Sequence record: NZ_CP023526.1
Length of the DNA: 64,000 nt
Reading direction: 5' to 3' (one strand)
From: a plasmid
A program made the position numbers and the translations under genes. The notes below the pieces were generated by a model. It ran no database searches, was not told where the DNA came from, and saw nothing but the letters and a program-made list of their open reading frames with translations. This document shows positions 1,494 through 39,616 of the stretch, piece by piece (positions within the stretch are counted from its first letter, which is position 1; each line of letters starts with the position of its first letter).

Positions 1494-1962
1494 GGTACTG
1501 TCGTATCAAGACGAGGCCGGGTAATATTCTGCTTTTTTTGATATTACCTGACCCCAACTTTGATCCGGCTCGCCTGCAGAAGCCTGTATGGTCCCTTTTA
1601 TATCAATGAATAATGTATCTACTGGCATCTGGTGTACCTACTCAGCCTGTGTAGTCAGGTCACGGGAATAACCCTCTTATAGTACAATAATCCCCTGTCT
1701 CCAAACTGACCTTAACTAACAGAGAACAGTCCGGCTTCAGCTTCCTGCCATATATCGATCGTAATATTGGCCGGGCGGGTATTCGTGGAACGTAGTCCCG
1801 CTCGAAAACCGTCTGGAATTCCAGATTCGCACTAACATCTCATTTTTGGCATTTATCTACAGGGCCTGCCTGATAATTTGTTTTGTATCAATTATCACCT
1901 GCGTTTTTTTTATTTTACTTCAGTTGTCTCCTTCATTCCTTAAAACCTTAAAAGGATTATTT

Positions 1963-3063: not shown

Positions 3064-3094
3064 CCTCCTGTTTAGAGAAAACAAAGGTAATGTT

Positions 3095-12046: not shown

Positions 12047-12505
12047 TTAGAGGGCAATATCGGGGGCCCCACTCCGGATGAAGCAGTTTTCGGCCCCCCA
12101 GTCGGGCCAGTGCAAGCGCCACCAGATCGCAGAATGCCAGATGATGCGCAGGATTATTGCCCGATTGTCATTGAATTTCTTCAGGCGAGTCTCAACAATC
12201 GCCTGCATCATATAAATACCGGGATTCTGGTTGAGTGTGCGGTTCCACAGGGAACGATGAGGAAGTGGAAAACACCGTGTGATTCGCTGCACCTTTCTGC
12301 ACAGGCGCGCACCAGGACATAAGCATTTCTCGTGTTGATAGACTCGCCGTTTGCACATTGCCTTACGAGCCTCGTTTAGGCTGTCTGTATCCATCCATTT
12401 AGCAATTCGGTTGTGGTAGTCATTATGGAACAGCGGCTTATCATTGGTAAATTTGGCATTTGTCGTAAGGTGAAGATAATCCAGGCTTGAACATTCCTTC
12501 TCCAT
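12047..12505 (-). CDS. hypothetical basic Cys-rich protein
   Basis: 152 aa, co-directional with and 43 bp downstream of the XRE regulator gene. No recognisable motif. Confidence 0.45.
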   Translation of the reverse strand: MEKECSSLDYLHLTTNAKFTNDKPLFHNDYHNRIAKWMDTDSLNEARKAMCKRRVYQHEKCLCPGARLCRKVQRITRCFPLPHRSLWNRTLNQNPGIYMMQAIVETRLKKFNDNRAIILRIIWHSAIWWRLHWPDWGAENCFIRSGAPDIAL

Positions 12506-12548
12506 GCCACAGTTTCTACCACTATACTCTGCTCTGGATTAACTCGAG

Positions 12549-13040
12549 CTAATCCCCCAGCCCTTTCTCATCAAGAAGGTACTCCCTACGAATGGCTCTT
12601 TGTTTATCCACTGATAACTTATTCAGTTCCAAGGCAAGCTCGATAACCGGCACAGGTAAAGACATCACCTCGCGCCCATCAGAGCCCCTTGCATTTTCAA
12701 CCTGCTGCAGCAATGCATTTAACATTTGTTTGATAACGATACTTCGCTGGGCGTCCGACAAAAACTCGGCCAGAGTCATCATTAACTGCAGGTCTCTTTT
12801 TATACAGCACTCATCATCAGTCTGACTTACATCTTCCCCTAACAGCCAGGCTGAGCTTAGGCCCGTTGCCCGGGCTATTTTTTGTACCTGCTCAATGCCA
12901 TTAGGCACAGAGTCACCCGCAACATAGCCCCGAATAGTGGAATAAGGGATATCACATTTCTGCGCTAAATCGCGCATGGAATCCCCTGTCATAGTGAGCA
13001 GCTCGGCAAGTCTGACACTAAAATTGCTCTTAATCATCAC
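12549..13040 (-). CDS. XRE-family helix-turn-helix transcriptional regulator
   Basis: 'VRLAELLTMTGDSMRDLAQKCDIPYSTIRGYVAG' is a Cro/C1-type HTH. A C-terminal ~90-aa extension follows. Confidence 0.7.
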   Translation of the reverse strand: MMIKSNFSVRLAELLTMTGDSMRDLAQKCDIPYSTIRGYVAGDSVPNGIEQVQKIARATGLSSAWLLGEDVSQTDDECCIKRDLQLMMTLAEFLSDAQRSIVIKQMLNALLQQVENARGSDGREVMSLPVPVIELALELNKLSVDKQRAIRREYLLDEKGLGD

Positions 13041-14778: not shown

Positions 14779-16644
14779 ATGGCAAACTCAACGAATCAGG
14801 GAAGAAAAAGTAAGAGCCCGCTTGACGATAAAACTACTATTGATGATTTACACAGCATCCCCCTTGCATCGTTGTTAGACGGTTATGAAGAACTGTGTGG
14901 TTTAAATATGTGGCTTGAACTAAGCAAATTAGCATCTACAGCTTTAAACCGCGATGACCACTCTGCTCACAGAGCATATAAACTCTTAGCGACGCTATGT
15001 TCAATGCGAATGTCATCTGACGATCCGGCCGATACTTGGCATCCAAGATGGCAAGATGCAGAAAATAAAATGCTCACGCCTCAAGATATAAAAAGTGATT
15101 ATAACTCACTGCTTTCAGATATTGTTAATTTTATTAATAACTTGGCATTGAAAGGCCGAATTGCAGATATCGTATGGTCAAATGACCGTAAAGAATACAA
15201 GTGTGGCATCGAAGCGGTCAAAGCATATTCTAATATAGTCCTTGAGCATATAAGCAAAAAATGCGATACCGATAATTTCACAAAGTTATTTGAGTTGATG
15301 AATTTATTACAGAGAGCCTTGTGCATAAATGGGACGATGGGTAAGCGCGACCATATTCCAAGTTATCTAGCAAAAGCTTTTGAACAATTTTATATCTTCT
15401 CTTATCAAAAATGTATATATGTAGCATTTTCTAGGATTGGAGAGTTAGCTATAGGTTATAAAATAAAAACATGGCAAGAAGTAGCTGATGATTCAGAAAA
15501 TCTTGTTAACAGGGGAAGTATAAATGATTATCCAGAAGCTCGGAAGAAAGTGTGGGCACTTGCAGCACAATGTCATCTGAAAAATAAAAACACTGAAGGT
15601 CGCAGGCACTGTTTAGAGGAGTATTCAAATGAAACTCTAAGAATGTGTGAACAAGTTTCAAGCTATGCTGCGAAAGCTTCTTGGGTACGACAGGCTATAA
15701 CAGAACTTCAAATAGCGGGTGGGTTTCAGGATAAAATTGATATTCTTCGAGTTAAATTAAGGGACTTACAACTTGCCAGCCTCTCTGAGATGTTTCAATA
15801 TGACATGCCTTGCGATCTATCAGAAGAATACAATGAAACAATTAATCAGTTCACAAACATTTTCCTCCCCGAAATACTGTATTGCTTTGCAATATTATCT
15901 AAATCACCAACTATTGAAAGCTTAAAAGAAGAAATTTTAAACAACAATAGTAGTGGAATATCCTTTTTATTCCCCACTTCAATATATCTTGACCAAGAAG
16001 GCAAACCTGTAGCTAAAACATGCAGTCACTCTTCAGAGCAAGAACCTAAAAATGAGTGGCTGAAATCGAACTCTATTATACATATGAGCAGCCTTAGGTA
16101 TTTTATTGTTGAATCAAGAATTAAACCAGCCCGACATGCTACGATGCTGCAATACGCGGTTGAGCTAAGACATTTCGATGTTATTGTGAGTTTAAGTAGC
16201 TTTGTTCCTTTTGGCCATGAACATCTCTTCAGTTTAGGTTTTTCCCGTTTATTCCAAGGTGATTTGGCATCAGCAGCATATATACTAATTCCTCAGCTTG
16301 AGAATACATTACGCCATGTTTTATTCTGTAGTGGAAGAGATTCATTCAAATTTTCGGATGGCGGTCTTCAGGAGGATCGTTCTTTGTCGGGGCTATTGGA
16401 AAATAAACGTAGTGATTTATTAGAAATATTTGGTGAGGATATAGTTCATGAGATTGATATGCTTTTCCATTATAAAGCAGGCCCTTCGCTAAGGCATAAA
16501 GTTGCACATGGAAAATTGTCGGCTGGAGACTGTTATCAGCCAGATTGTATCTACGCTTGTTGGTTTATTTATAGACTCATTTGTTTACCTATTCTTCATT
16601 GCTGGAAAGACCAAGTAATACCGCAAATTGAGATGACGCTTTAA
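14779..16644 (+). CDS. large hypothetical protein with a C-terminal Rx4HG (HEPN-like) motif; candidate abortive-infection/RNase protein
   Basis: 621 aa, about 35 % GC. RBS AAAGGA 7 nt upstream. '...GPSLRHKVAHGKLS' near the C-terminus fits the HEPN R-x4-6-H signature. Confidence 0.8.
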   Translation: MANSTNQGRKSKSPLDDKTTIDDLHSIPLASLLDGYEELCGLNMWLELSKLASTALNRDDHSAHRAYKLLATLCSMRMSSDDPADTWHPRWQDAENKMLTPQDIKSDYNSLLSDIVNFINNLALKGRIADIVWSNDRKEYKCGIEAVKAYSNIVLEHISKKCDTDNFTKLFELMNLLQRALCINGTMGKRDHIPSYLAKAFEQFYIFSYQKCIYVAFSRIGELAIGYKIKTWQEVADDSENLVNRGSINDYPEARKKVWALAAQCHLKNKNTEGRRHCLEEYSNETLRMCEQVSSYAAKASWVRQAITELQIAGGFQDKIDILRVKLRDLQLASLSEMFQYDMPCDLSEEYNETINQFTNIFLPEILYCFAILSKSPTIESLKEEILNNNSSGISFLFPTSIYLDQEGKPVAKTCSHSSEQEPKNEWLKSNSIIHMSSLRYFIVESRIKPARHATMLQYAVELRHFDVIVSLSSFVPFGHEHLFSLGFSRLFQGDLASAAYILIPQLENTLRHVLFCSGRDSFKFSDGGLQEDRSLSGLLENKRSDLLEIFGEDIVHEIDMLFHYKAGPSLRHKVAHGKLSAGDCYQPDCIYACWFIYRLICLPILHCWKDQVIPQIEMTL

Positions 16645-16935: not shown

Positions 16936-18105
16936 TTATCGTCTGGCGGTCGCTGAAAGAGTCTCATCCTGTGCCAGTAAAGTTATCACATCACCAGCTA
17001 TTTCTGGTCTGATACCAGGCGTTTTATAGGCCGCATACGCTGCAACGGATAATGGGCTCCAGGCATGCACCCCAGCGATACGTTTTACCTCCTCGATAAC
17101 CTTAAACGTATCGTTTTCCAAAGCCAGTCCTAAACGGGCTGTATCCAGATAAATGCGCTGAACTCCAGAGATATGCGTGAACTTTTTAAGTTCTGCGGTA
17201 ATAATTCGCTGCGCTTCCACACCGATAGACGAGCCTCCTTCAACGACCCCTGTCAACCCAACAAGCTTACCTCCATCACTACGAGTATTGTCATCTTTGA
17301 CTCTTGGAAGCGGCACTAAGACATTCAACTCTACATCCTGCTGAAGTAACTCAAGCAGTTCGGGCAAAAGCTCAGTTTTGATGACACCTTTTAAAGCAAC
17401 TGCTCTTTTAGCTAGAGTGACAGGGGACTGTCCCAACCGCGCCGACATAGAAATAAGACAACTCGCGATTATGAAAATATCGCATTCCCCTATCAAAGGG
17501 GCACACTCGGCCCGGAAAGATTGCTCGTCACGAAGTGTAGGATTTACTTTTTCAGGTTTCCTAATTTTTGAATTCGGCTGCTTCTTGCTACATCCACACA
17601 AAGCATCCTGTGCATTTCGGGTTAGTATGCTGATGCTTTTAAGTAGATCCTCACCGCCCTCAAGGTTGGCAACCATTTTCTGCATATTTTCGAGCCTGCC
17701 AAGCATCTCGGGATTAGCATTACCCGAAGCGATCTTCTCGCTGATGTCATTAAGATTCCTCAGAACACCAGTAACAATCTGCGATGGAGCAGGATCTGAG
17801 GCTTTCAGTTCATGGCTTTTTTTGATTTCTTTCTCCATCAACTGGAGCGCCTGCTTCCAGTCGGTTTGTACACCGGCTTTAAGGGTCTCAAGATTAAGAA
17901 TAACGGTGCGAAGACGTTCACTTTTAGCTAATGGTATAGGTTCACCATTCTTTTTACCTACTTTCAGCCAGTGAACTAAGGAAACGAAGTCAGCTTTAGC
18001 CGTCGTAGCAAGTCCATTGATAACGCGCTGCCGTGCTTCAGGTGTAGAGTGGTTTGTTCTCGGCGCTGGCAGACGATCATTTTTGTGCACTATTGACCTC
18101 TTCAT
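16936..18105 (-). CDS. hypothetical protein (no recognisable domain; basic N-terminus, alpha/beta C-terminal half)
   Basis: 389-aa ORF convergent with the 621-aa gene. The segment 'CDIFIIAS...GKLVGLTGVVEGGSSIGVEAQRI' suggests a Rossmann-like fold. Confidence 0.7.
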   Translation of the reverse strand: MKRSIVHKNDRLPAPRTNHSTPEARQRVINGLATTAKADFVSLVHWLKVGKKNGEPIPLAKSERLRTVILNLETLKAGVQTDWKQALQLMEKEIKKSHELKASDPAPSQIVTGVLRNLNDISEKIASGNANPEMLGRLENMQKMVANLEGGEDLLKSISILTRNAQDALCGCSKKQPNSKIRKPEKVNPTLRDEQSFRAECAPLIGECDIFIIASCLISMSARLGQSPVTLAKRAVALKGVIKTELLPELLELLQQDVELNVLVPLPRVKDDNTRSDGGKLVGLTGVVEGGSSIGVEAQRIITAELKKFTHISGVQRIYLDTARLGLALENDTFKVIEEVKRIAGVHAWSPLSVAAYAAYKTPGIRPEIAGDVITLLAQDETLSATARR

Positions 18106-18316
18106 ATCGGATATCTCAACTCGGCTCCATCATCGATAAACCCACGCCCGGATTCCAGACTGCAATCAAACCCCCTTACATATCATGTTTTAGGGTAGTG
18201 ATGCCCGCTGCGCCATCAAAGTATTGTTATATTTTGCTCACAAAGGTGATTCTTCAACTTCCGCTTTTGGCACTCATCGAAAGTTATCATTAACTGCCCT
18301 TGTAAGTCTCCCAGTA

Positions 18317-19201
18317 TTAGTTCCACACACTTTTTGAGAGTTCCGGTTTTTCAGCCATCAGCCGGTACTCTTCTGGCGTCAGGTTGTTCAGGGATTCATG
18401 AGGCCGCTCGTTGTTATATTCCATCAGCCAGCTCTCTGTAATTTCCCGTACTTCATTCAGTGTTCTGAACAGGTAAAAATCCAGGATTTCTGTCCGGTAT
18501 GTCCGGTTGAAGCGTTCGATAAAAGCATTTTGTGTAGGTTTTCCCGGCTTTATAAATTCTAGCTGCACACTATGCTCTTCGGCCCATTGTGCCAGCGCCA
18601 GAGATACAAGTTCCGGACCATTATCCATCCGCATTTTAAGTGGATAGCCGCGGTTTGCCACGATCCGCTCCAGTACCCGGACAACACGTTGAGCCGGGAT
18701 GTTCAGGTCGATTTCTATCGCCAGCGCTTCACGGTTAAAATCATCCACTACATTGAAGGTCCGAAAGCGTCTGCCACAGACCAGCGCATCGTGCATAAAA
18801 TCGATGGACCAACTCTGGTTTAACGCTTGCGGCGTCGCCAGTGGTGCAGGGTTACGCACTGGCAGCCGCTGTTTTCCCTTACGACGAAAATTCAGTTTCA
18901 GCAGGCAGTAAATCCGGTGAACGCGTTTATGGTTCCAGGCGTTACCCTGCCTGCGCAGTAACTGAAAAAGCTTCTTAAAACCATAACGCGGGTAGCGCTC
19001 TGCCAGCTCAGTCAGCATCTGGATCACCGGTTCATCCCGCCGGATATCGGGCTGGTAAAAATACACCGTCCTGCTCAGCGATAACGTCCTGCAAGCCTGG
19101 CGTAAACTCATGGCAAATTGCGCCGTCAGATAGCTGACGAGTTCACGCTTTATCGCTGGTTTTAAAGCTTTTTTTCGATAACGTCTTTCAGGGCCCGGCA
19201 T
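18317..19201 (-). CDS. IS3-family transposase OrfB (DDE integrase core)
   Basis: rve-type core with D...D...E spacing ('WSIDFMHD', 'MRMDNGPE', 'ERFNRTYR'). Confidence 0.85.
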   Translation of the reverse strand: MPGPERRYRKKALKPAIKRELVSYLTAQFAMSLRQACRTLSLSRTVYFYQPDIRRDEPVIQMLTELAERYPRYGFKKLFQLLRRQGNAWNHKRVHRIYCLLKLNFRRKGKQRLPVRNPAPLATPQALNQSWSIDFMHDALVCGRRFRTFNVVDDFNREALAIEIDLNIPAQRVVRVLERIVANRGYPLKMRMDNGPELVSLALAQWAEEHSVQLEFIKPGKPTQNAFIERFNRTYRTEILDFYLFRTLNEVREITESWLMEYNNERPHESLNNLTPEEYRLMAEKPELSKSVWN

Positions 19202-19449
19202 TCAAGACTGAGATCGGCAAACATCTGTTTGAGACGACGATTTTCGTCCTCGAGATCTTTCATCTTTTTGATATCAGAGGCTTCCATACCGCCAAACTTC
19301 GCTTTCCAGTTGTAATAACTGGCTTCTGAGATACCGGCTTCACGGCAGACATCTTTGACGGTCCGGCCAGCTTCGACGGACTTTAGCACGGCGATGATTT
19401 GGTGTTCGGTGAATCGGGCTTTACGCATGGCGATCTCCTCAGGGGACAT
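19162..19449 (-). CDS. IS3-family transposase OrfA (HTH)
   Basis: 'RTVKDVCREAGISEASYYNWKAKF' HTH followed by a leucine-zipper 'DLEDENRRLKQMFADLSLE'. Confidence 0.85.
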   Translation of the reverse strand: MSPEEIAMRKARFTEHQIIAVLKSVEAGRTVKDVCREAGISEASYYNWKAKFGGMEASDIKKMKDLEDENRRLKQMFADLSLECRALKDVIEKKL

Positions 19450-19863
19450 AATCAGTATGTCGGAAGATCTCTAAAAGTGAATGGTTCGGTTTGCCGGGAT
19501 GCTTACACCCTATCGCCCTCTTCGGCTCAACGGCAGGCGGGTCCGTCAACACAATTACGCTAACCGGCAAGCTCCGCCCAATCGCCAGCTGCGGCGTTTC
19601 GGGTCTCACTGCTGGGGTCTGATAGCAACATCCATTCCCGGCATCTGACTCGCGCTAGCGCGCTCACAGTCCACCAAAATCGGCAGCCACTAAGGGCCGG
19701 CTTAAATGCTGCCGTCCGGAGTCGTGCCCTGTTCATTACCTGCTGTCCTGATTCTTTCTTTTCAGCCTATCCACCGTGCGAAATCTGCCACAGAGGTGGT
19801 ATCACAATAGGGGCGACAGGCTAAACGACTACACCCGATCACTGAATCTGAACGATATGTGTA

Positions 19864-19886
19864 ATAACCGCCCGTGGGCGGTTATT
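19864..19886. terminator. hairpin AATAACCGCCCGTGGGCGGTTATT, probable terminator for the Lamassu-like operon
   Basis: Perfect 10-bp stem, about 100 nt downstream of the stop at 19987 on the minus strand. Confidence 0.5.
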
Positions 19887-19986
19887 AGAGTGAGCAGGAA
19901 AGCGGGGTCCCAGCAAGCGTGAGGCAGGAAGTTTGGCTTTATAAAGTTTATCCGCGCAGCGAAGAAGGGTCTCCCCAAATAGAGGC

Positions 19987-21999
19987 TCAATCATCCTGAG
20001 TTATCAACCCCTCACCCCGTGAACGCCAGGTAGCCCTTACATAGTCCTGAAAATGATAACCCTCTCCTAAAATAAGATTATCTGCGTGGTCAGAGACTAT
20101 CACCTGCGGGGTCACTCCAGTTTCTTCTCCTGTTTTTTCACAGAATTTTGCCAGTTGGATAAACATATTCGTTACCGCTTTCATGTCGTCATCCAGAATG
20201 TTTTCACGCCGGTTTTGTCTTGCAAGCTCTTTTGGCCTGAACTCATCCGCATCGTCCAGTGCCGCGGGGAAATAAACCTGCGTCGGTTGGTCTAAAAACA
20301 GAATTGGTGGGATTTTACATCCTCTTTTGGAATGCGCCGCAAACTGATAATGTAAAGCCATGAAGAGCGCCAGATGCGAGTAAAGCCAGTTGGCTCCACT
20401 TCCCATCGCGCGCAGATAAACACGATTTTTGGGATCCTGTTGATACCATAAATCGAACGTCTCAGTATCAAAACGGAGAGCCGAGGGCTTGTAGGTCTCT
20501 TCAAAATCGAAGAGATCACCATACTCACACATTTTGTCATTAATGCTGATTGAGAGCTCATGCAAACTACGTTCGACCTTAAATGCTTCCAGATGGCCTG
20601 AAAGCCGGATGATCTCAGCGCGCCAGTAGGCTTCCAGTTCGTCGAGATCTGTTACCGGTCTGTCCAGTTGCTCCTGGATCGCCAGCTCAAGCCGAATTTT
20701 AGCTTTTATTGCTTGTTCGTTTATCGAACCGCCGGCTTGGAGCCTGTGAAACTCTTCATCAAATGGCTCAATACTCTCCTGAATCAGGGAAAGGGAATCA
20801 TTGAGGTCATCCAGCTCCTCCTCTAACTTCCGGCGTTCTCCTTCAAAGCTCTCACGCGCATACGTAGAGAATGCAAGCTCATCGTTCAACCATGTTATTG
20901 CCTCCGTAAGCTTGTTGACCTCTACGACGGGTAAAGAGTTTTCTGCTTTACACATCGGGCAATAGGCGTGAGACAACGTCGCGGAGTCGGGCAGATGGCT
21001 CTTGGACATACCTTGCGTGAATTGCATTGCAGAAGCTCTGGAATCTTTGATTAGCCTCAACTGACCCTGAACTTTCCGTTTTTTTCCCAGCACTTCAGCT
21101 CGCTCTTTCTCAAGCTTGTCTCTTTGCACTTCGATCTGATCAGAGAGGACATTCACGCTGACTGTGCTCCTGGAAATTTGTTCAAGCCACATGGCCGGAT
21201 GGGCGTAGATGGCTTCACCCTGACCATCAATAAGTGGCTTACCCGTGAGGCTCAAATACTCTTTAAGGTAACGGTTATAGCGGTCGGTCAGTAAAGCTTT
21301 TCGTTGAGCCTGCTGTGGGATCTGACGCTGTACTCTGCCCAGTTCAAATTTAGCGAGCTCAAATTCTTTATGGAGATCAAAATAATCTTCATTCACCAGA
21401 CCCATCAGGATCTTGAAGTGCTTGATAGCCTGATCTCGTTTTTCCTTTTCGTCAAAGCGGTAAAAGATTGCGTGCTTATTAGCAATCAGATTCTGGTGCT
21501 GTAGCATAAATGAAGAAAAACTGCGCACGGTGGGAGTTGGGGATTTGTGTCGACCTGACGACAGCTTAAAGGGGGTCTCATCGACATTTCCCATGATTAC
21601 GCCAAAATGCCGGCCCAGACTTTTTTTGAACGCGCTCAGAGGCATGTCCTGTTCAGAACCGAATAACGCGGCGGGGTCTTCTATAAGCGCTGACAGATGG
21701 TCGGGATCGACACCCGGGACATCAATCAAAAAGCATCGATCAGATTTCTTTTTTCTCGCGGCGATAACTGCATAGCGTGTGAACTGAAGCGCAATAAAAA
21801 ACGTCTCTGCGCGTTCGGTGATAATCCCAATAGGTATCGTGTCTTCAGAACTACCCATGCAGTAATCGAAAATTTCGAGTAACGCGCTCTTTCCTGTTGA
21901 AGACTTGCCTGTAATGACATTCAGTCCAGGTTTGAGACTCACTTTATGAATCTTATTTCGCGTATCTGCTACACCGATATATTTTACGAAGCATGTCAT
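19987..21999 (-). CDS. SMC-like ABC ATPase (Rad50/SbcC fold), LmuB/DdmC-like
   Basis: 670 aa. N-terminal Walker A 'NVITGKSSTGKSALLE', a long central coiled-coil and a C-terminal Walker B/D-loop 'PILFLDQPTQVYFP'. Confidence 0.8.
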   Translation of the reverse strand: MTCFVKYIGVADTRNKIHKVSLKPGLNVITGKSSTGKSALLEIFDYCMGSSEDTIPIGIITERAETFFIALQFTRYAVIAARKKKSDRCFLIDVPGVDPDHLSALIEDPAALFGSEQDMPLSAFKKSLGRHFGVIMGNVDETPFKLSSGRHKSPTPTVRSFSSFMLQHQNLIANKHAIFYRFDEKEKRDQAIKHFKILMGLVNEDYFDLHKEFELAKFELGRVQRQIPQQAQRKALLTDRYNRYLKEYLSLTGKPLIDGQGEAIYAHPAMWLEQISRSTVSVNVLSDQIEVQRDKLEKERAEVLGKKRKVQGQLRLIKDSRASAMQFTQGMSKSHLPDSATLSHAYCPMCKAENSLPVVEVNKLTEAITWLNDELAFSTYARESFEGERRKLEEELDDLNDSLSLIQESIEPFDEEFHRLQAGGSINEQAIKAKIRLELAIQEQLDRPVTDLDELEAYWRAEIIRLSGHLEAFKVERSLHELSISINDKMCEYGDLFDFEETYKPSALRFDTETFDLWYQQDPKNRVYLRAMGSGANWLYSHLALFMALHYQFAAHSKRGCKIPPILFLDQPTQVYFPAALDDADEFRPKELARQNRRENILDDDMKAVTNMFIQLAKFCEKTGEETGVTPQVIVSDHADNLILGEGYHFQDYVRATWRSRGEGLITQDD

Positions 22000-22463
22000 A
22001 ATGATTTGAATCCTAACGTCCTGTAAATGGTAACGATATCCACTTCGGCGAACAAAATCGCCAGGCGGCTAGCAGCGGTTAAATGCACCGGATTAGCACC
22101 GCCTGTATCGACGGCGCGCAGAGATTTGACGGAAAGACTGTCAGTGATTTCGATACTTTCTGCCGTCTGGAGAAAAAGCAACGAGGCATGTGTGAGGGAT
22201 TTATTTTGCTGCACCAGGTGCGTCAAACCCAGCAGTCGCGACTGCTGGGAGCACATTGTTCTCAGACTGCTGGATCCCTTAGCATGAATCAGAAAAGTCT
22301 GCATAGGAGGAGACAGCAGCATTGGGAGTACGAGATAACTCAGCAGCAGGTCTCGCTCACGTGAGGCATATTTTTCATAAAATTGGTGAAGACAGGGTGC
22401 AAGCAAAATAGGGGATCGCTGAAGCGTAAAGAGATGATTGATGGCCTTCGGTTTCATTCCCAC
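21996..22463 (-). CDS. small middle component (LmuC/DdmB-like) of the three-gene ATPase operon
   Basis: 155-aa ORF. Its stop overlaps the ATPase start (ATGA), and its start overlaps the upstream gene's stop. Confidence 0.6.
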   Translation of the reverse strand: MGMKPKAINHLFTLQRSPILLAPCLHQFYEKYASRERDLLLSYLVLPMLLSPPMQTFLIHAKGSSSLRTMCSQQSRLLGLTHLVQQNKSLTHASLLFLQTAESIEITDSLSVKSLRAVDTGGANPVHLTAASRLAILFAEVDIVTIYRTLGFKSL

Positions 22464-23788
22464 AGCCTCCAGTGGAACTCTACGTCGCTATCCTCTGGTT
22501 CTTCATCGGCAAGCAGGTGATAAATTCCATTCCGGAAAGTAGCGGGTGTTGAATTGTAACGGCTAAATACAGTAACGGCTTCACCCTGACGTTCGTAATA
22601 AAAAGCAAGGGACTCGTCCTTTAAGTCTTCCATCGAGGACTTTTTAAATTTAATCATGGCGCTCTTCCTTTTACTGAGATGGCGCCTTAGCTCACTGTCC
22701 CAGTATTCATCAACTTCCCGCTGTGAGGTGTCGAAATTCTCAATTAGCTCATAGAGATATTTTTCTGCATGTAAAATGTCTCCCGCAGCCAGAACGACAT
22801 CTCGCTCAGTGCCCCCAATTTCAGTCAGTTTTTGTACATAACGCTCATTGCTGACGTTCATTTTTGTGGCTTTGTCTTTGATTGCATTACTATCGATAAT
22901 CGGAAACACTACCGTGCCATGCATGTAACGGCGGGTCAGCTCAGCAAATTTTTTATCAAACTCCCCGACCTTAAATTTCCACCCTTCCGTAATCTTGATT
23001 GCATCTGTCATAAAACCAAACATATCGTTCAGAAAATCATTTTGTTTATTTGAAAGGATGCCCTTGAGGTAACGTTTCTTATATCTAGCTATCCGATCGT
23101 TCAGGCCTGGCTGCTCAGTCCAGATCCTGATTTTAGGCAGCAACTCAAGCAACAAATCACGCTTCTTCTCATCCATAATGGTACGTTGCTGGCGAACGGT
23201 TTTTGACGGCTCAGCAGGACGGGAGGCTTCTTTCTCGGCTGGCGGACGCTCATCTTTATTTTCTTCTTTACGCCTCTGTGCCTCAGTGAAACGGGCTTCT
23301 GAGCTTTTATGAATATCCGTCAGCACTTTCAGTCGATCATTGGCGGATAATTCATTCCAGCCATCAAAGGCGGTTCTTTCACTGTAAGGCTGCGTGGTCA
23401 GAAGGATAAGGTCCACGAACTGGGTATGATCAAAGTCCGGGTCAAGCCAGTTGTTAAGCGTATTCCAGAAGTTTTCATGTGAATCGGTCAATTCATCCGC
23501 GTAATTTTTGACTTCTGTCTGTGACTTGCCAGGGATCGAAACATCTCCAAGCACTTCAATCCATAGCTCATCCCCATCCTCGAGGGCGTGGCAATGCTCG
23601 ATGGCTACGTGGATCTGGTATACCATGGATTCAAAAAGTTTTGTCGCATCAACTTTTAGTTTTTTTGTCACACTTCTACCCCGGGTTGAATCCACTAACT
23701 TCAGAAAATTTCCGCGTTTTCTTAACATTGCCGGTGAGTTCTCTAATGGAGAAAATATCTGAGGCGAGTTATCTGATGCGGAAAACAC
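22454..23788 (-). CDS. predicted effector (LmuA/DdmA-like) with an N-terminal nuclease-like domain; GTG start
   Basis: 444 aa. The N-terminal '...HVAIEHCHALEDGDELWIEVLGDVSIPGKSQTEVK' could be a PD-(D/E)xK-type nuclease core (not confirmed). The rest is helical with a charged linker. Confidence 0.6.
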   Translation of the reverse strand: MFSASDNSPQIFSPLENSPAMLRKRGNFLKLVDSTRGRSVTKKLKVDATKLFESMVYQIHVAIEHCHALEDGDELWIEVLGDVSIPGKSQTEVKNYADELTDSHENFWNTLNNWLDPDFDHTQFVDLILLTTQPYSERTAFDGWNELSANDRLKVLTDIHKSSEARFTEAQRRKEENKDERPPAEKEASRPAEPSKTVRQQRTIMDEKKRDLLLELLPKIRIWTEQPGLNDRIARYKKRYLKGILSNKQNDFLNDMFGFMTDAIKITEGWKFKVGEFDKKFAELTRRYMHGTVVFPIIDSNAIKDKATKMNVSNERYVQKLTEIGGTERDVVLAAGDILHAEKYLYELIENFDTSQREVDEYWDSELRRHLSKRKSAMIKFKKSSMEDLKDESLAFYYERQGEAVTVFSRYNSTPATFRNGIYHLLADEEPEDSDVEFHWRLWE

Positions 23789-24063
23789 ACATCAATAAAT
23801 GAGCCCCATTCCAGCGCCTCAACTATTTGCTTTTTGAGACAATGCCGCATTGATTTTTAAATAATGAAGTTTTTTTGTAAACAAAAATAGCCATGTCGGA
23901 TTAATCAAACTGCAAGAAAAATCATTTAACATATTTAAATCAATAACATAAAGAATACTAACAGCAGGATACCAACTTCCGCTCTTGGCACCGAAGAACA
24001 ATAGAGAGAACCAAAACACATTGAAAACAAAATTAGCCCACTGATTAGCAGGCCTGAAGGTAA

Positions 24064-25216: not shown

Positions 25217-26497
25217 TCAACGCAAATGTGCGATCGTTTCAGGACTATCTTCAAAAATAAACGGATTGAGGAACACTCGGCCCCACAAGAAGTTGCGATC
25301 CACTTCGCTCAGTGACGCCTCACGACATACTTCTGCCCAGTTTTCGTGGACCGTACGGATGCTGTGTGTGATAATTTCAATCGCTTCCTGCTCACTCAGC
25401 AGAAATTTAGCCGCCGCCGACAGACAAACTGCAAGATTGCTCTTTCGGTTTTCACCAATAATCAGCATTGCCTGCGTCGCTTCATTACCAGAACGCCCCT
25501 GGGGACAAATATCATAGGCCGGTGTCAGACTCAGTTTGTTGCCATCCCAAAATGCGGCATGATTTCTGGCGTGATCGTCAGTGTTACCACTAATAATATT
25601 AAAAACCAGACGCCCGAATAGTTCACGTAACGTCTCTTTAGGTGCATCAAAGCGCTGGCGAATAATATCCGTCAAATCCTCATAACTCGCATATCTTGCC
25701 ATCATCTCATCAAGACCAAAAATGGTCAGCGCAGAGACCATCAGGCGACGCTGCCAGCCTGTATGGCTTCGTATACGGTCAAAGCGTTCAATCAGTATGA
25801 CGTCTTTACCCGCGGTATGTCGGAGAAGAACAGGTGCAACATTTAATCCAGCACAGGCAGCCAGTCGCATAGCGATATATTCAGCTTTAACAACATTATA
25901 AGTATCTGTGGAAGAAGAAAACTTTGCGATAAATTTATGAGCCCCGGACTCTATCATTGCCTTTGGCCGCGCACCGCCTAATGAACTACCGTGAAAAAGC
26001 GCTTGTTCCAGTTCCGGAGTTAACGGTACTCCACTTTCAACCATTGATGCAGCCTGCATCAACTCTTCAAGAGATGCACTTTGGGACGCACGCGGCACAT
26101 ACTCCGTTGCGGAGCGCTGGAAGTCGAGTCCTCCAATCCTCTCTGAGCCAGATTCAAGCAAATATGTCAGTTCATCCAGTCTGTCAGGATCAGCGTCCCT
26201 GCCCTGAGCTCCCATCAGCCGGTTCAGAATGACTCGACGCCCCCAGGCATCCGGGGCAGCATCACGTAATGCACTCGCCTGCTGTAGACCTGGTGCGGGC
26301 AAAATCGCACCCCGAACCAACGGGAGTTCTGGCTCATAGACAGGGATCGCATCTTCCCGTTCCAGGTAACTGCGCCCGTAGTTGAAAATAAATCTGTTGT
26401 CATCACGAGTTAACACACCTGCGACAATCGGTTGAGTTGCCCCAGGCAACCAGATCCATACGTATGCCAGACCGGGGCTGTTATCAGAAGTCATCAT
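25217..26497 (-). CDS. hipA: HipA-family serine/threonine kinase toxin
   Basis: 426 aa. 'ISGNTDDHARNHAAFW' matches the HipA catalytic loop D-x-H-x-K/R-N. The N-terminal region also resembles E. coli HipA. It overlaps hipB by 14 bp. Confidence 0.8.
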   Translation of the reverse strand: MMTSDNSPGLAYVWIWLPGATQPIVAGVLTRDDNRFIFNYGRSYLEREDAIPVYEPELPLVRGAILPAPGLQQASALRDAAPDAWGRRVILNRLMGAQGRDADPDRLDELTYLLESGSERIGGLDFQRSATEYVPRASQSASLEELMQAASMVESGVPLTPELEQALFHGSSLGGARPKAMIESGAHKFIAKFSSSTDTYNVVKAEYIAMRLAACAGLNVAPVLLRHTAGKDVILIERFDRIRSHTGWQRRLMVSALTIFGLDEMMARYASYEDLTDIIRQRFDAPKETLRELFGRLVFNIISGNTDDHARNHAAFWDGNKLSLTPAYDICPQGRSGNEATQAMLIIGENRKSNLAVCLSAAAKFLLSEQEAIEIITHSIRTVHENWAEVCREASLSEVDRNFLWGRVFLNPFIFEDSPETIAHLR

Positions 26498-26852
26498 TTA
26501 TCACCTTCTTAGAGTGATACACTGAGCGTGGCATCAGCGATAAAGTTTTCTCTGCATTTACGGTATGTAACGTCATCGATGCCTGATCGGGCGTAAAAAG
26601 TGAAACACCAACTATGGTAGCCAGTTCAAATACCGCGCCAATTGCACACCCCATGTCCCCTTCTTCCGCACGATAAACGAGTCCACGCGATACCCCGGCA
26701 CGTTCAGCCAGCTCTTCAACGGTCAGTTTACGTTCAATACGCGCTGTACGAATCATCAGCCCCAGTAGTCGTGCAGCATCTCGGCTATAACGAGAGTAGG
26801 TTCGAGTAGAGGGTTTTGCCATTACAATCTCACTGTTCCATAAATAGAGCAT
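26484..26852 (-). CDS. hipB: HipB-like XRE-HTH antitoxin (alternative ATG at 26822)
   Basis: 'LLGLMIRTARIERKLTVEELAERAGVSRGLVYRAEEG' HTH, immediately upstream of and overlapping hipA. Confidence 0.65.
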   Translation of the reverse strand: MLYLWNSEIVMAKPSTRTYSRYSRDAARLLGLMIRTARIERKLTVEELAERAGVSRGLVYRAEEGDMGCAIGAVFELATIVGVSLFTPDQASMTLHTVNAEKTLSLMPRSVYHSKKVINDDF

Positions 26853-31549: not shown

Positions 31550-32180
31550 ATGACCGAATCAAGCGATTATGAACCCGTCCAGATCTTTATTGGCGTTGAC
31601 GTCGATAAAGATACCAATCACGCTGTTGCCATCAATCGTTCAGATAACCGCCTGTTCGATACAGAATTATTCAACGACGAAACCAGACTCAGGTCGCTGA
31701 AATTTGACCTTAAACAACATGATCAGAGACAGCTGGTTGTTGACCAGCCAGCCACCATTGGGGCGCTACCTGTCACCGTTGCCCGCTCGGAATGCGTCCT
31801 TGTCGGATACCTCCCCGGCCTGGCAATGCGCCACATCGCCGACTTACCCGCCGTGAAGCCAGGACAGATGCTCGAGACGCTGCCATCATCGCCGGACTCT
31901 CCATGCTCTGCGACTTCGATGATGATCTCACCGCACAAACAATGCAGTCCAGCCCCCCGTATCCGCAGTCTGTTAACCCAGAGACATCCTGCTCTGGAGC
32001 GCGTTCGCGTTTCTCGACTGGTTCACCCGGCCGTCCATAATCCGCTCCAGCAATATACCTCATCCGAAAAACTCGTTTTACCGGGGAAGAAGAAGCCGGC
32101 AATCCGGCTCTGCAAACTCGAGCCCTGCCTGAGAAAGCACCTTGCTGCAGATATCACCCTGGCACTGATACAGTAAGCCG
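31550..32180 (+). pseudogene. IS110-family transposase gene, frameshifted/truncated
   Basis: The N-terminus 'IFIGVDVDKDTNHAVAI' and the later frame 'DARDAAIIAGL' match the IS110 DEDD transposase N-terminal domain. Reading it through requires frame changes. Confidence 0.6.
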
Positions 32181-33692: not shown

Positions 33693-34892
33693 ATGCTTGA
33701 TAAGGCGCATCAGATTTACAAGGTGGCACAGCGCTCGGAGAAGATGCTTCTGGGGTTAACAGAGCAAATCCAGAATCAGAAAGAAGAACTCCAGGAAAAT
33801 ACCTATTTTCAGGTGTATGCCAAAGCAGCCCTTTCCAGACTGCCTAAACTTACCCGGGCTAACGTGGACTATGCCGTCAATGAGATGGAAGAACAGGGTT
33901 ATGTGTTTGATAAACGGCAGGCCGGTACATCAACCAAGTATGCGATGTCTATTCAGAACATTATTGACATCTACCACCATCGGGGAGTGCCAAAATACCG
34001 CGACAGGCATGAGAAAGCTTTCACAATCTTCATCGGTAATCTGAAGGGCGGGGTTTCAAAAACGGTTTCTACTGTTTCACTTGCCCATGCCTTACGTGCC
34101 CACGCCCATCTTTTATACGAAGATTTACGCATCCTTGTCATTGATCTTGATCCCCAGTCTTCTGCGACCATGTTCCTGAACCATACGCACTCTGTGGGCA
34201 CTGTGGAAGCCACTGCCGCGCAGGCTATGTTACAGAATGTTGACCGTGAGACACTGCTGCGTGAATTTATTGTGCCATCTATCATCCCGGGTGTGGATGT
34301 GATACCAGCGTCAATCGATGATGCATTTATTGCCTCAGGATGGGAAAAGCTGTGTCATGAGCATCTACCCGACCAGAATATTTATGCGATTCTGCGACAG
34401 AATATTATCGATAAGGTTGAAAAGGATTACGACTTTATCTTTATAGACAGTGGGCCCCATCTGGATGCGTACTTATCCAATGCCATTGCAGCATCAGATA
34501 TTCTGATTACTCCGATCCCTCCGGCGCAGGTTGACTTTCACTCGACCCTGAAATATCTCACACGGGTTCCTGAACTGATCACAATGATTGAAGAGTCTGG
34601 TTTTGCTACTCGACTGGTAGGCAATATCGGATTTATGTCGAAGCTGTTAAATAAAGCCGATCATAAATTTTGTCATAGCCTGGCAAAGGAAATTTTCGGC
34701 GGTGACATGTTGGATATCGCGCTCCCCCGACTGGATGGTTTTGAAAGGTGCGGTGAGTCTTTCGATACCGTCATTTCAGCCAACCCTTCCACCTACGTAG
34801 GTAGCAGTGAAGCCTTGAAGAATGCCCGTGCCGCCGCAGAAGATTTTGCAAAAGCGGTATTCGATCGCATTGAATTTATCAGAACAAATTGA
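33693..34892 (+). CDS. parA: plasmid partition ATPase ParA (P1/P7 type, type Ia, N-terminal HTH)
   Basis: 399 aa. It is collinear with P1 ParA as I recall it ('HKVAQRANRMLNVLTEQVQLQKDEL...' vs 'YKVAQRSEKMLLGLTEQIQNQKEEL') and has the deviant Walker A 'NLKGGVSKT'. Confidence 0.9.
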   Translation: MLDKAHQIYKVAQRSEKMLLGLTEQIQNQKEELQENTYFQVYAKAALSRLPKLTRANVDYAVNEMEEQGYVFDKRQAGTSTKYAMSIQNIIDIYHHRGVPKYRDRHEKAFTIFIGNLKGGVSKTVSTVSLAHALRAHAHLLYEDLRILVIDLDPQSSATMFLNHTHSVGTVEATAAQAMLQNVDRETLLREFIVPSIIPGVDVIPASIDDAFIASGWEKLCHEHLPDQNIYAILRQNIIDKVEKDYDFIFIDSGPHLDAYLSNAIAASDILITPIPPAQVDFHSTLKYLTRVPELITMIEESGFATRLVGNIGFMSKLLNKADHKFCHSLAKEIFGGDMLDIALPRLDGFERCGESFDTVISANPSTYVGSSEALKNARAAAEDFAKAVFDRIEFIRTN

Positions 34893-34901
34893 GATTAAGA
34901 G

Positions 34902-35873
34902 ATGAACATAAAACGAAAAACTATCGGTAGAACTTTCACCCAGTCTCCGTTGAGCGAGTCTGCAGCAGGAGAGGATTTTAACCAGACGTTTATTCTCAAT
35001 TCAGGCAGATCCGTTGTTTTCACACTGCAGGTGATCAAAGCCGAGAATGTTGCGACAGAGACCTTCGTTGTGCCCGAAAATAATGGACGCGATCAGTCAG
35101 CACTCACCAAAGCGTCTCTCAAAGATATCACCAGGACACTGAAGCTTCAGCAATTCTTTCCCACTATTGGACGCAAGGTCGGTGATAAGATTGAAATTCT
35201 GGACGGTTCGCGCCGACGTGCTGCCGCGATTATCTGTAAAACAGGGCTGAACGTACTGGTAACGGACGCTGATATTTCAACGGAGGATGCCCGAAAACTT
35301 GCCTCTGACATTCAGACCGCGAAAGAGCATAACCTCAGGGAGGTGGGGTTGAGACTGGCAAGTCTGAAGAACAGTGGTATGTCTCAGAAAGAGATTGCTG
35401 AGAGTCAGGGTTTATCCCAGGCAAAAGTCACACGTGCATTGCAGGCCGCAATGGTACCTTCCGAAATTTTAGCTATTTTCCCTGTACAGTCTGAATTGAC
35501 CTACCCGGACTATAAACAGTTGCTGAGTTTAAGTGAATTTCTGGTGGAAAAAAACCTGACGGTCGATGACTTCCTGACAGAACTTGATCTTCAGATTAAC
35601 GCCGTGCATGCAAAAGAGAGTCACTCGTCTGAAGAAATCAAAAATGCATTGCTGGGCGTCATGAAAAAAGCGCTCACAAAACTCGCCTCACCGGCTGGAA
35701 AAGAAAAAGTGGTGACCACCCCACTGTGGATCTTTGCTGACAAAGATCGCTATGCCCGCAAAAAAACCAAAGGAAGGCAGCTTTCCTATGAGTTTAACCG
35801 CCTTCCCAGAGATATTCAGGATGAGCTTGATACTGCCATCAATAACATTCTGAACCGTCTGCTTGCCGACTGA
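34902..35873 (+). CDS. parB: partition protein ParB (P1 type)
   Basis: 323 aa. 'KIEILDGSRRRA', 'GMSQKEIA...GLSQAKVTRALQAA' and 'FPVQSELT' match P1 ParB. Confidence 0.85.
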   Translation: MNIKRKTIGRTFTQSPLSESAAGEDFNQTFILNSGRSVVFTLQVIKAENVATETFVVPENNGRDQSALTKASLKDITRTLKLQQFFPTIGRKVGDKIEILDGSRRRAAAIICKTGLNVLVTDADISTEDARKLASDIQTAKEHNLREVGLRLASLKNSGMSQKEIAESQGLSQAKVTRALQAAMVPSEILAIFPVQSELTYPDYKQLLSLSEFLVEKNLTVDDFLTELDLQINAVHAKESHSSEEIKNALLGVMKKALTKLASPAGKEKVVTTPLWIFADKDRYARKKTKGRQLSYEFNRLPRDIQDELDTAINNILNRLLAD

Positions 35874-37489: not shown

Positions 37490-38580
37490 TGATGATTTTA
37501 TATTCTCTTTCCAGTGGTTACTACTTTGTGCAATGATTTACTCTTTATAGTGGTTGTTCTCTGTAGCGGTTTTACTCTTCATAGTGGTTACTCTCTGTCG
37601 TGGTTTTACTCTTCATAGTGGTTACTCTCTGTCGTGATTTTACTCCTTACAGTGGTTATTCATTATGATGCCTGATCGGTTTAAAACCCGTTACACATAG
37701 TCTGAGATTTCTAGCAGACGGGTCATACTTCATCATGGTTATGTGTTGTCTGGTAGCTGTGTACCAGAGCGATTTTCTTGTCCGGGGGTATTAGCAGTTT
37801 AATAACAGGTTAATTTGCTGATTATACGGAAAGTTAAGACAGGAATGATGTGGGCCTGTTTACCGGAGATAGTGAGGTTCTGGTCAGCTGGGTCAGGGAA
37901 TAACATTGCATTTCGTAACCTGTGAGTTCCTTAACATTTACGATATTTACCTGGATGGAGAGATGGCCTATCTCATTAATACCTGCTGTGCTCTCGCTTT
38001 ACTTCGTTTGCGCTGATTACAACACCATCATGATAAACAGCATGGCGCTTGTTATGTATTGACTTATCCACTTATCCACCGGATAGATCCAATAATTAGA
38101 TCATAATATGATCCTCAAAAGATCAAAACAGATCACCGGATCGTCTGAGGGCTGTTGTACCAAGGGCTGAAGCGCTATTGCTATCCACTATAATGAGTAA
38201 AGTATCCACTGTAGACAGTAAGGTAACCACTATAGTGAGTAATTTAACCACTGTAAGGAGTACTCATCAACCACTGTAGTCAGTAAACTGTCTCTCTGGC
38301 TGTGAATATCATGAAGTGATCCCTTCCAGGCAAATGCTATGTTTTATTCCTCATTTATCCACAGGCTAGATCCAATAGTAAGATCCCAATGTTCATAAAA
38401 GGTCAAAAGAGATCACCGGATCCTGCAAAGCCAGAGCTGATAAGGCGTAGCAACGGATCCATATCCACTGTAAAGAGTAAACTAACCACTGTGAGGAGTA
38501 AATTGACTACTGCAGAGAGTAGAATAACCGCTATAGTGAGTGTTAGTATCCACTGTGTTGAGTATTCAGCATGCGTATGC
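37490..38580. promoter_or_regulatory. oriV: replication origin region: iterons (core AACCACTGT(A/G)(A/G)GGAGTA) in both orientations plus two duplicated modules, each with DnaA boxes (TTATCCAC) and GATC sites
   Basis: Inverted iterons lie at 37500-37670. 'cTTATCCACTTATCCACC' (38070..) and 'TTATCCACAGG' (38352..) are each followed by 'agatcaccggatc' and then 3-5 direct iterons. Several GATC (Dam) sites cluster here. Confidence 0.7.
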
Positions 38581-38603
38581 CAAACAGAATCGGGATAATG
38601 TAA

Positions 38604-39616
38604 TGGCTAATGAATCGGAAAATATCAAAGAGATAGCAACTGCTTTTGCTGAGGTGAAAAAGGGCACCGGCGAAGTTGTTAATCTGGTTCCTAACAGCAA
38701 TAATACGGTTCAGCCAGTCGCATTGATGCGACTGGGCCTGTTTGTGCCCACGCTGAAATCCACAGCCCGTGGCAGGAAGGGCCAGATGGCCACAATGGAT
38801 GCGACAGCCGAGTTAAAGCAACTGAGCCTGGTAACGTCTGAAGGTTTTGAAAATATCCAGATCACCGGTGCCCGGCTTGATATGGATAACGATTTCAAAA
38901 CGTGGGTTGGGATCATCCATGCCTTCGCAAAATTCAAAGTGATCGGGGATAAAGTCACCCTGCCATTTGTGGAGTTCACGAAACTTTGCGGCATTCCTTC
39001 CAGCCGTTCTTCTGCGGCGTTGCGCAAACGTATTGACGCGTCACTGCAGCGCATAGCAACGAATACGCTCTCTTTTACCAGCAACGATAAGGCGTATCAC
39101 ACCCACCTGGTTCAATCGGCTTATTTCGACATGAAGAAAGATATTGTGATCCTTCAGGCCGATCCTAAACTGTTTGAGTTATACCAGTTTGATCGTAAAG
39201 TTCTGCTCCAGCTTCGCGCCATCAATGAATTAGCCCGTAAAGAGAGCGCACAGGCGCTTTACACATACATTGAGAGTCTCCCCCAGGATATCAAGCCCAT
39301 CTCAATGTCGAGGCTTAGAGCCCGCTTAAATTTGACTTCTCGAACCATTACTCAGAATGCAACTGTTCGTAAAGCAATGCAGCAGCTAAAAGACATCGGT
39401 TATCTCGATTTTACCGAGTACCAGCGGGGCAGGGCGGTATACTTTCATATCCACTATAGAAGGCCTAAGCTCCGCCCGGCACATTTGCCTTCAGGCCTCC
39501 CGGAAGCGCCTGACGTCGATCCAGCTCTTGATGAGTTCGACGCAGACCAGATTCTGGCAACGCTCACCAAAGAGGAGCTTGAATTGCTCGAGAGTCTGAG
39601 GGGCAGCAAGAAGTAA
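38604..39616 (+). CDS. repA: replication initiator RepA (Rep_3 family, RepFIB/P1 RepA-like)
   Basis: '[23 protein letters not shown]...[22 protein letters not shown]...[15 protein letters not shown]...[19 protein letters not shown]...[14 protein letters not shown]...[12 protein letters not shown]' is collinear with F-plasmid RepFIB RepA and P1 RepA. The ORF-track start at 38540 is probably spurious. Confidence 0.85.

Follow-up and report, generated by a model that had tools for sequence, protein, structure and literature searches.

The stretch of DNA analyzed here, 64,000 nucleotides of sequence record NZ_CP023526.1 (referred to as the window), carries three overlapping minus-strand genes at positions 19987-23788 that an earlier note, made from the sequence alone, had proposed to be an antiphage operon of the Lamassu/DdmABC (ABC-3C) type. 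We name the genes lmuA (effector), lmuC (middle component), and lmuB (ATPase) after the Lamassu components that their products match. All positions refer to the window, and values in e notation are E values. The genes and the candidate transcription signals next to them are as follows.

22454-23788, minus strand: lmuA as its longest open reading frame (ORF), 444 amino acids (aa), GTG start.
22454..23671, minus strand: lmuA, most likely coding sequence, 405 aa from GTG 23671 (PADLOC LmuA match, disorder in the structure model, homologue starts, RefSeq).
21996-22463, minus strand: lmuC as its longest ORF, 155 aa, GTG start.
21996..22457, minus strand: lmuC, middle component of the MC3 family, 153 aa from ATG 22457 (Pfam MC3, 1.9e-24; PADLOC LmuC, 1.7e-7).
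19987..21999, minus strand: lmuB, short-type SMC/Rad50-like ABC ATPase, 670 aa, ATG start (PADLOC LmuB, 3.5e-113).
19862..19887, minus strand: GC-rich hairpin with an 11-bp stem, ~100 nucleotides (nt) past the lmuB stop codon, without a T-tract.
23853..23881, minus strand: weak candidate promoter upstream of lmuA, a sigma-70-like match (TTTACA-17-AAAAAT).

The three minus-strand ORFs of 444, 155, and 670 aa, with overlaps of 10 bp and 4 bp, are present in the ORF listing as the earlier note described them. As ORFs they stand, but the 5' ends of lmuA and lmuC are probably shorter. Residues 1-42 of the 444-aa LmuA ORF are disordered in the AlphaFold model, the position of V40 is the N terminus of most of 28 aligned homologues, the V40 codon is a GTG (position 23671), and the RefSeq product, WP_096754231.1, has 405 aa; thus, the 444-aa ORF is probably too long. 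The start of lmuA is probably GTG 23671, giving 405 aa, with ATG 23728 (424 aa, as in GenBank) and GTG 23788 as alternatives. For lmuC, the start is probably ATG 22457, two codons inside the 155-aa ORF, which yields the 153-aa product given by both GenBank and RefSeq and forms an ATGA sequence with the lmuA stop codon, so that this overlap is one of 4 bp and not 10 bp. The lmuC/lmuB junction is a clean 4-bp ATGA overlap, and the ATGA sequence is therefore found at both junctions. The same lmuC/lmuB overlap was present in 43 of 43 related loci, a conservation that would be consistent with translational coupling. The stretch containing the hairpin past lmuB (151 nt) folded with -41.2 kcal/mol and a z score of -2.2; the hairpin is a possible terminator of the operon. 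The operon had also been described as lying in a guanine-plus-cytosine (GC) island of ~35-40%, which did not hold: its GC content is 46.4%, compared to 47.2% for the whole window, and its lowest 300-bp stretch has 40.3%.

LmuB matched the PADLOC LmuB model PDLC03859 end to end (residues 1-667; 3.5e-113, 378 bits) and Pfam DUF3732, now named LmuB_C, with 167 bits against a cutoff of 25 (3.6e-49). The Walker A motif GKSSTGKS and the Walker B motif ILFLDQP that had been read from the sequence were located at residues 31-38 and 566-572, respectively, and for the long coiled coil, residues 205-477 match SMC coiled-coil regions. The motif residues, namely, Walker A K37, the zinc hook C347-x-x-C350 (CPMC), the signature-like G533-S534-G535, Walker B D570-Q571, and H638, were invariant in 44 homologues from the related loci. 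Short LmuB proteins are characterized by Gx4GK[S/T], a deviant Walker B motif hhhhD[Q/S/T/E], a length of ~600 aa rather than ~800 aa, and 0-2 CxxC motifs (PMC12663957); the LmuB of the window has Gx4GKS, ILFLDQ at 566-571, a length of 670 aa, and a single CPMC at 347-350. Its closest solved chains, aligned over nearly the full length, were Salmonella LmuB (9hqu_A, 7.5e-32) and Vibrio cholerae DdmC (9ny5_D, 6.6e-29), and the CPMC zinc hook, GSGxNW, LDQP, and DHA of solved LmuB chains all align with those of the window protein. Three of the four basic 5'-phosphate contacts of V. cholerae LmuB (VcLmuB) are kept, in that its DNA-end contacts R152/K174/H180 align to R159/R181/K187, which were invariant in the 44 homologues.

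The middle protein, LmuC, matched Pfam MC3 with 86 bits against a cutoff of 23.2 (1.9e-24) and the PADLOC LmuC model with 1.7e-7. Because a phmmer search of the Protein Data Bank (PDB) with LmuC returned only chance matches to DARPins, comparison with solved chains needed a family profile and a predicted fold. The predicted structure (predicted local distance difference test [pLDDT] 88; predicted template modeling [pTM] score 0.83) had as its three best Foldseek matches, and as the sole matches below E = 0.01, the LmuC chains of three solved Lamassu complexes (9hqu_D, TM score 0.80/0.75; 9ny5_C, 0.73/0.66; 9uxh_D, 0.65/0.60); no further match came below E = 1. The LmuC family profile matched the first of these chains, Salmonella LmuC, with 5.5e-4.

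LmuA falls into two domains, given here with residue numbers of the 444-aa ORF, which are used throughout (K94 corresponds to K55 in the 405-aa numbering).

23294..23671, minus strand: LmuA N-terminal Cap4-like PD-(D/E)xK nuclease domain, ORF residues ~40-165, catalytic candidates E78, D82, E92, K94.
22457..23176, minus strand: LmuA C-terminal helical domain, CTD7-related, residues ~205-444.

The PADLOC LmuA model PDLC03848 matched residues 46-434 with 6.3e-40. Full-length profile matches of this order for the 444-aa and 670-aa ORFs (6e-40 and 3.5e-113) are far beyond chance. We collected 88 LmuA homologues, nearly all of which are labelled "hypothetical protein," and aligned the window protein with 28 of them (identity range, 27-90%). 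Invariant in this alignment were, among others, Q58, E78, G81-D82-V83, Q90, E92, K94, N106, W108, N113-W114, and T132-Q133. The "D/E-rich N-terminal block" that had drawn attention in the sequence is thus real, with E78, D82, E92, and K94 invariant across 29 sequences. The fold check of the suspected PD-(D/E)xK nuclease was run on an AlphaFold model (pLDDT 84), which has an N-terminal alpha-beta-beta-beta-alpha-beta core in which strand 1 is directly followed by E78, strand 2 contains D82, and strand 3 contains E92-x-K94, the PD-(D/E)xK arrangement. Beyond this core, the model shows a variable charged linker and then the helical C-terminal domain.

A phmmer search of the PDB with the isolated N-terminal domain gave nothing significant; the identity of this domain therefore comes from structure and from profile-profile comparison. 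With the LmuA model, Foldseek retrieved from the PDB Salmonella LmuA (1.4e-13; TMt 0.70 at 3.0 Å for the 154-residue chain 9hr5_D) and V. cholerae LmuA (2.3e-12), followed by the Cap4 of the cyclic-oligonucleotide-based antiphage signaling system (CBASS) at 1e-3 and, more weakly, Avs3 and DUF4297-HerA. The LmuA family profile matched the C-terminal domains of the solved proteins, V. cholerae LmuA (9nxx, residues 156-379, 2e-9) and Salmonella LmuA (9hqu_C, 5e-5). Pfam and NCBIfam scans of LmuA yielded no usable match; a DraG match was spurious, with 15 bits against a cutoff of 337.

Canonical Cap4-CTD7/MC3/DUF3732 Lamassu operons are carried by the Pseudomonas aeruginosa plasmid pPUV-3 (459 kb, IncP, conjugative; L051 1802-5453) and by a Burkholderia gladioli plasmid (L052 1724-5393). 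These two, found by tblastn with LmuB, served for calibration. Their LmuA proteins match Pfam CTD7 with 5e-39 (pPUV-3) and 1e-36 (B. gladioli), and their middle proteins match MC3. In hhalign comparisons, the window LmuA family aligned to the two canonical LmuA proteins with 96.7% (pPUV-3) and 95.7% probability; the pPUV-3 alignment covered 351 columns and both domains and placed E78/D82/E92-x-K94 onto E/D/Q-x-K. On the basis of the structural matches, the C-terminal profile matches, and the hhalign alignments to CTD7-positive LmuA proteins, the effector is a divergent Cap4-like LmuA, probably of the CTD7 lineage, with ExK instead of QxK. By homology, its C-terminal domain would be the one that binds LmuB/LmuC and mediates tetramerization.

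The assignment to Lamassu/DdmABC (ABC-3C) was thus borne out: all three proteins match the PADLOC LmuA, LmuC, and LmuB models, and Pfam MC3 and DUF3732 match as well. We conclude that the minus strand of 19987-23788 very probably holds an intact short (type II, DdmABC-like) Lamassu/ABC-3C operon of Cedecea neteri, in the order lmuA-lmuC-lmuB and of the Cap4-nuclease/CTD7-like/MC3 subfamily. DdmABC has been placed in the "NTD-Cap4-CTD7 plus MC3" ABC-3C subfamily in a preprint on the Salmonella Lamassu (bioRxiv 10.1101/2025.03.14.643221), which uses the nomenclature of Krishnan et al. 2020, and the MC3 match together with the weak CTD7 match suggests the same subfamily for the window operon.

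The organization of the operon is conserved. In a synteny scan of GTDB species representatives, we found 48 loci with LmuA relatives, from Pseudomonas, Serratia, Kosakonia, Pectobacterium, Massilia, Paraburkholderia, Aeromonas, Flavobacterium, Mucilaginibacter, and others, spanning Gamma- and Betaproteobacteria, Bacteroidota, and other groups. The genes were adjacent, on the same strand, and in the order lmuA-lmuC-lmuB at 44 of the 48; the remaining 4 were contig-end truncations or a fragment. Conservation in the nearest relatives was ~65% for LmuB versus ~50% for LmuA. Proteins >90% identical to the operon products occur in Cedecea, Enterobacter, and Citrobacter, the last two on contigs of 4.9-5.1 Mb that are presumably chromosomes, and the Citrobacter/Enterobacter occurrence indicates horizontal mobility. 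By megablast, the operon had no match in PLSDB or in 5,426 complete Escherichia coli genomes; 73 PLSDB plasmids carry any DUF3732 homologue, all at about a third identity or less.

Among characterized systems, two are close. The V. cholerae DdmABC (LmuACB, "Lamassu Vc-Cap4"; PDB 9nxx, 9ny5, 9nyg, 9uxh-9uxl) has the same gene order and, as the earlier note had stated for the approximate sizes, closely matching proteins in length (388/171/653 aa, compared to 405/153/670 aa here). It shares a Cap4-like nuclease with a helical C-terminal domain, a middle component of the same fold (TM score, 0.73), and a short DUF3732 LmuB with a DQ Walker B motif, and the catalytic K57 of its LmuA is at the position equivalent to K94 in the window protein. 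The Salmonella enterica Tennessee LmuACB (PDB 9hqu, 9hqx, 9hr5) was the best PDB match for all three window proteins (LmuB, 7.5e-32; LmuC, TM score 0.80 and profile 5.5e-4; LmuA, Foldseek 1.4e-13), and the CPMC zinc hook, GSGxNW signature region, and LDQP Walker B motif of its LmuB align directly with those of the window LmuB. It belongs to the Cap4-CTD7/MC3 subfamily, whereas the C-terminal domain of the window LmuA is below the Pfam CTD7 threshold; its LmuA and LmuC are 17-22% identical to those of the window in structural alignments, and host and replicon differ.

Several observations weigh against a straightforward assignment. The window LmuA did not match the Pfam Cap4_nuclease/DUF4297 models and scored 13.3 bits against Pfam CTD7 (PF20283; E 0.1), below the gathering score of 27.6. 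Its residues 90-94 (23507-23521) form an invariant Q-x-E-x-K, a classical ExK, where the canonical pPUV-3 and B. gladioli LmuA proteins align Q-x-K. In LmuB, E52 (21844-21846) aligns to the 5'-phosphate contact K55 of VcLmuB, and the position is E or D in 43 of the 44 homologues. LmuB is only ~26% identical (tblastn) to DUF3732 homologues on plasmids, and the identity of LmuA and LmuC to solved chains in structural alignments is 14-21%. No promoter in the region was convincing, with 9 sites found compared to 6.4 ± 2.7 expected from shuffled sequence, and a consensus terminator scan did not call the 19862..19887 hairpin or find any T-tract terminator. With regard to the first of these points, the Pfam Cap4_nuclease model under-detects LmuA nuclease domains, since the CTD7-positive canonical proteins of pPUV-3 and B. 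gladioli likewise lack a match (E <= 0.01); we therefore rejected the view that the silence of this model argues against a Cap4 effector. The proposed Cap4-type effector is hence supported by structure and by profile-profile comparison and not by the Pfam Cap4_nuclease/DUF4297 model. As for CTD7, 14 of the 29 LmuA family members match at E <= 1, the best with 9.3e-6. The suspicion that the operon could be a divergent subtype was well founded, the ~26% LmuB identity and the ExK in place of QxK marking a divergent branch, and the acidic E52 may hint at a slightly different DNA-end recognition pocket, so that the DNA feature sensed may differ.

What is shown above is the family to which each of the three proteins belongs, their folds, the catalytic and ATPase motifs, and the conserved organization of the operon; how it might work can be outlined from the homologous V. 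cholerae and Salmonella systems of known structure, which supply the stoichiometry, trigger, release, tetramerization, and phenotype. Cryo-electron microscopy studies describe a complex of the composition LmuA1:LmuB2:LmuC1 that occludes the C-terminal domain of LmuA, and DNA ends are bound by LmuB and LmuC. Engagement of the ATPase heads, which depends on ATP, is proposed to liberate LmuA; LmuA then tetramerizes, and DNA is cut by the paired Cap4 domains of the tetramer, so that the infection is aborted or the cell carrying the plasmid is lost (PMC12663957; bioRxiv 10.1101/2025.03.14.643221). On this pattern, the three overlapping genes would be cotranslated, and their products would assemble into a complex of two LmuB protomers, with folded coiled coils and a zinc hook, one LmuC, and one LmuA. 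Sequestration of the LmuA C-terminal domain in the complex would keep the nuclease monomeric and inactive. The trigger, detected by LmuB and LmuC, would be free ends of phage or plasmid DNA or aberrant intermediates of its replication, and ATP-dependent head engagement would set LmuA free. Free LmuA would then tetramerize via its C-terminal domain. Two of the Cap4-like N-terminal domains would thereby pair to form an active site (E78/D82/E92-x-K94), and the active tetramer would cut DNA nonspecifically, so that the infection is aborted or the cell with the plasmid is eliminated. The residues that such a mechanism requires are in place, namely, K37, S534, D570-Q571, H638, and C347/C350 in LmuB and E78/D82/E92/K94 in LmuA.

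The operon is carried by C. neteri GCA_900461005.1 on contig UAVU01000009.1 (721,732 bp). Around it, the window contains the following features.

1961-4732, plus strand: glycerol dehydrogenase and dihydroxyacetone kinase (DhaK) genes, ~81% identical to genes of a 322-kb Enterobacter bugandensis plasmid.
12047-13040, minus strand: HTH_3 protein of 163 aa, then an unannotated 152-aa ORF; weak PADLOC capH match (1.5e-6).
14779-16644, plus strand: PADLOC defence candidate PDC-S39, 621 aa (7.9e-87; Pfam DUF7380 and DUF4209), 3.3 kb from lmuB.
16936-18105, minus strand: 389-aa ORF between PDC-S39 and the IS3 element, a gene call in the source assembly.
18300-19509, minus strand: IS3-family element, 478 bp downstream of lmuB, comprising orfA/orfB with a frameshift that is likely programmed; boundaries are the megablast extent.
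25217-26852, minus strand: overlapping pair of a HipA-like kinase (HipA_C, 7e-49) and a HipB-like helix-turn-helix (HTH) antitoxin, immediately upstream of the operon.
31550-32176, plus strand: IS110-type transposase gene.
33693-35873, plus strand: ParA (P1/F-type; HTH_54 and AAA_31) and ParB, together with the rep gene 10-17 kb from the operon.
38540-39616, plus strand: Rep3/RepB-type initiator (rep).

The operon does lie beside an insertion sequence (IS), as the earlier note had it. Copies with 89-91% identity to the IS3-family element are found on plasmids of Klebsiella, Citrobacter, and Serratia; a search for the ends of the window element by inverted repeats gave just one weak internal pair. 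Together with the IS110 transposase gene, the element brackets the Lamassu/HipBA segment. The HipA/HipB pair beside the Lamassu operon was also found in a second sample (L002). The 14779-16644 protein is a second, uncharacterized phage-defence candidate by its profile match; the 389-aa ORF downstream of it had no Pfam or PADLOC match, and 12047-13040 could be a regulator-partner pair or merely a generic HTH. Among plasmids, the rep gene came closest, at ~71% DNA identity, to those of Rahnella and Pantoea megaplasmids of 467-575 kb. At 58.7-62.1 kb are genes for polyhydroxyalkanoate (PHA) synthase and thiolase, and metabolic cargo such as the DhaK and PHA genes is typical of megaplasmids/chromids. 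The description of the operon as plasmid-borne is suggested by ParA/ParB, the RepB-type rep gene (33.7-39.6 kb), and the 721,732-bp contig; it is unproven, there being no near PLSDB match. The 722-kb contig is plausibly a megaplasmid or chromid.

This setting bears on what the operon is for. A Lamassu-type operon on a large replicon could serve mainly plasmid competition or exclusion, eliminating small incoming plasmids as DdmABC does, and less the defence against phages. The ParA/ParB and RepB/Rep3-type initiator genes 10-17 kb away, the ~71% identity of rep to megaplasmid rep genes, and the 721,732-bp contig all favor this reading, and DdmABC and several of its relatives eliminate plasmids or are toxic with them. 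However, the replicon type is unproven (a draft contig with no PLSDB match), the >90% identical proteins on 4.9-5.1 Mb Citrobacter/Enterobacter contigs are presumably chromosomal, and the characterized relatives do both jobs, so that only the emphasis differs and the mechanism is the same. We therefore regard a predominant role in plasmid exclusion as possible but unlikely. It is a good deal less likely that this divergent short Lamassu branch departs from DdmABC and the S. enterica LmuACB in its DNA-sensing specificity or cleavage chemistry, and possibly serves chiefly interplasmid competition on a Cedecea megaplasmid; the different sensing or cleavage is raised by the ~26% LmuB identity, the subthreshold CTD7 match, a nuclease motif of the ExK form, and an acidic residue where VcLmuB has K55.

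The remaining alternatives question whether this is a functional Lamassu operon at all. Formally, the adjacent IS3 insertion or a mutation could have silenced or crippled the operon and left a decaying remnant: the distance from lmuB to the element downstream is 478 bp, the promoter scan gave no strong site, and the lmuA start is ambiguous. However, all three ORFs are full length compared to their homologues, every catalytic or structural motif checked is intact, the IS3 element lies beyond both the lmuB stop codon and the hairpin, and a second sample (L002) contains identical proteins; thus, decay is very unlikely. Harder still to sustain is the possibility that LmuB has a housekeeping function in DNA repair or chromosome maintenance, as a RecN/SbcC/Rad50/SMC-like ATPase accompanied by two accessory proteins, and takes no part in immunity. 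Its P-loop and coiled coil gave weak matches to SMC, RecN, RecF, and an archaeal SMC-related protein, and Lamassu is derived from SbcCD in the literature, where SbcCD is its proposed evolutionary ancestor. The likeness to SbcCD/Rad50-Mre11 includes an ABC head split by a coiled coil, a CxxC zinc hook, and DNA-end recognition. In contrast with these systems, the window operon has no Mre11/SbcD nuclease, a deviant DQ Walker B motif, other accessory proteins, and a much shorter, folded coiled coil. Moreover, the scores of LmuB fell far below the NCBIfam cutoffs for housekeeping proteins (RecN, 13 bits versus 408; SMC, 19 versus 567; RecF, 16 versus 172), so the ATPase does not group with RecN/SbcC, the outcome that would have told against Lamassu; the PADLOC LmuB model was matched end to end with 378 bits. 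LmuB is partnered by an MC3 protein and a Cap4-like nuclease rather than by Mre11/SbcD or a kleisin, and the operon is spread patchily (>90% identical proteins in Cedecea, Enterobacter, and Citrobacter) and has IS elements, HipBA, and a PADLOC defence candidate as its neighbors. We consider a housekeeping role extremely improbable. Finally, a CBASS-type, cyclic-nucleotide-activated Cap4 effector that merely happens to lie next to an ABC ATPase can be set aside as next to inconceivable: homology of LmuA to the CBASS Cap4 and Avs3 Cap4-like domains (PDB 7yib, 6vm5, 6wan, 8dgc) is restricted to the nuclease domain, its C-terminal half is the helical LmuA domain (2e-9 to VcLmuA 156-379) and not a SAVED/CARF sensor, none of 10 flanking ORFs scanned matched a cyclase model, and 44 of 48 loci retain the tight A-C-B operon. 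CBASS Cap4 depends on SAVED and a cyclic oligonucleotide and Avs3 on a STAND ATPase, whereas Lamassu depends on release from the SMC-like LmuB/LmuC.

Lamassu is a well-described family, and the operon is a correct but ordinary annotation of a branch that current PADLOC models already cover. In RefSeq, the effector and most of its homologues are "hypothetical protein," and a few are already named Cap4-like endonuclease domain proteins; what is gained is the recognition of the effector as a Lamassu nuclease of the Cap4-like type whose catalytic residues can be identified, together with a determination of the probable start codons. Nothing in the operon challenges the present picture of Lamassu, and its divergence from the characterized members is modestly interesting. 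The conserved ExK and the acidic residue at a DNA-end contact position may help specialists to choose comparison systems. C. neteri is an occasional opportunistic pathogen, and the operon draws attention to an IS-laden, defence-rich region, which probably belongs to a secondary replicon of very large size in this organism.

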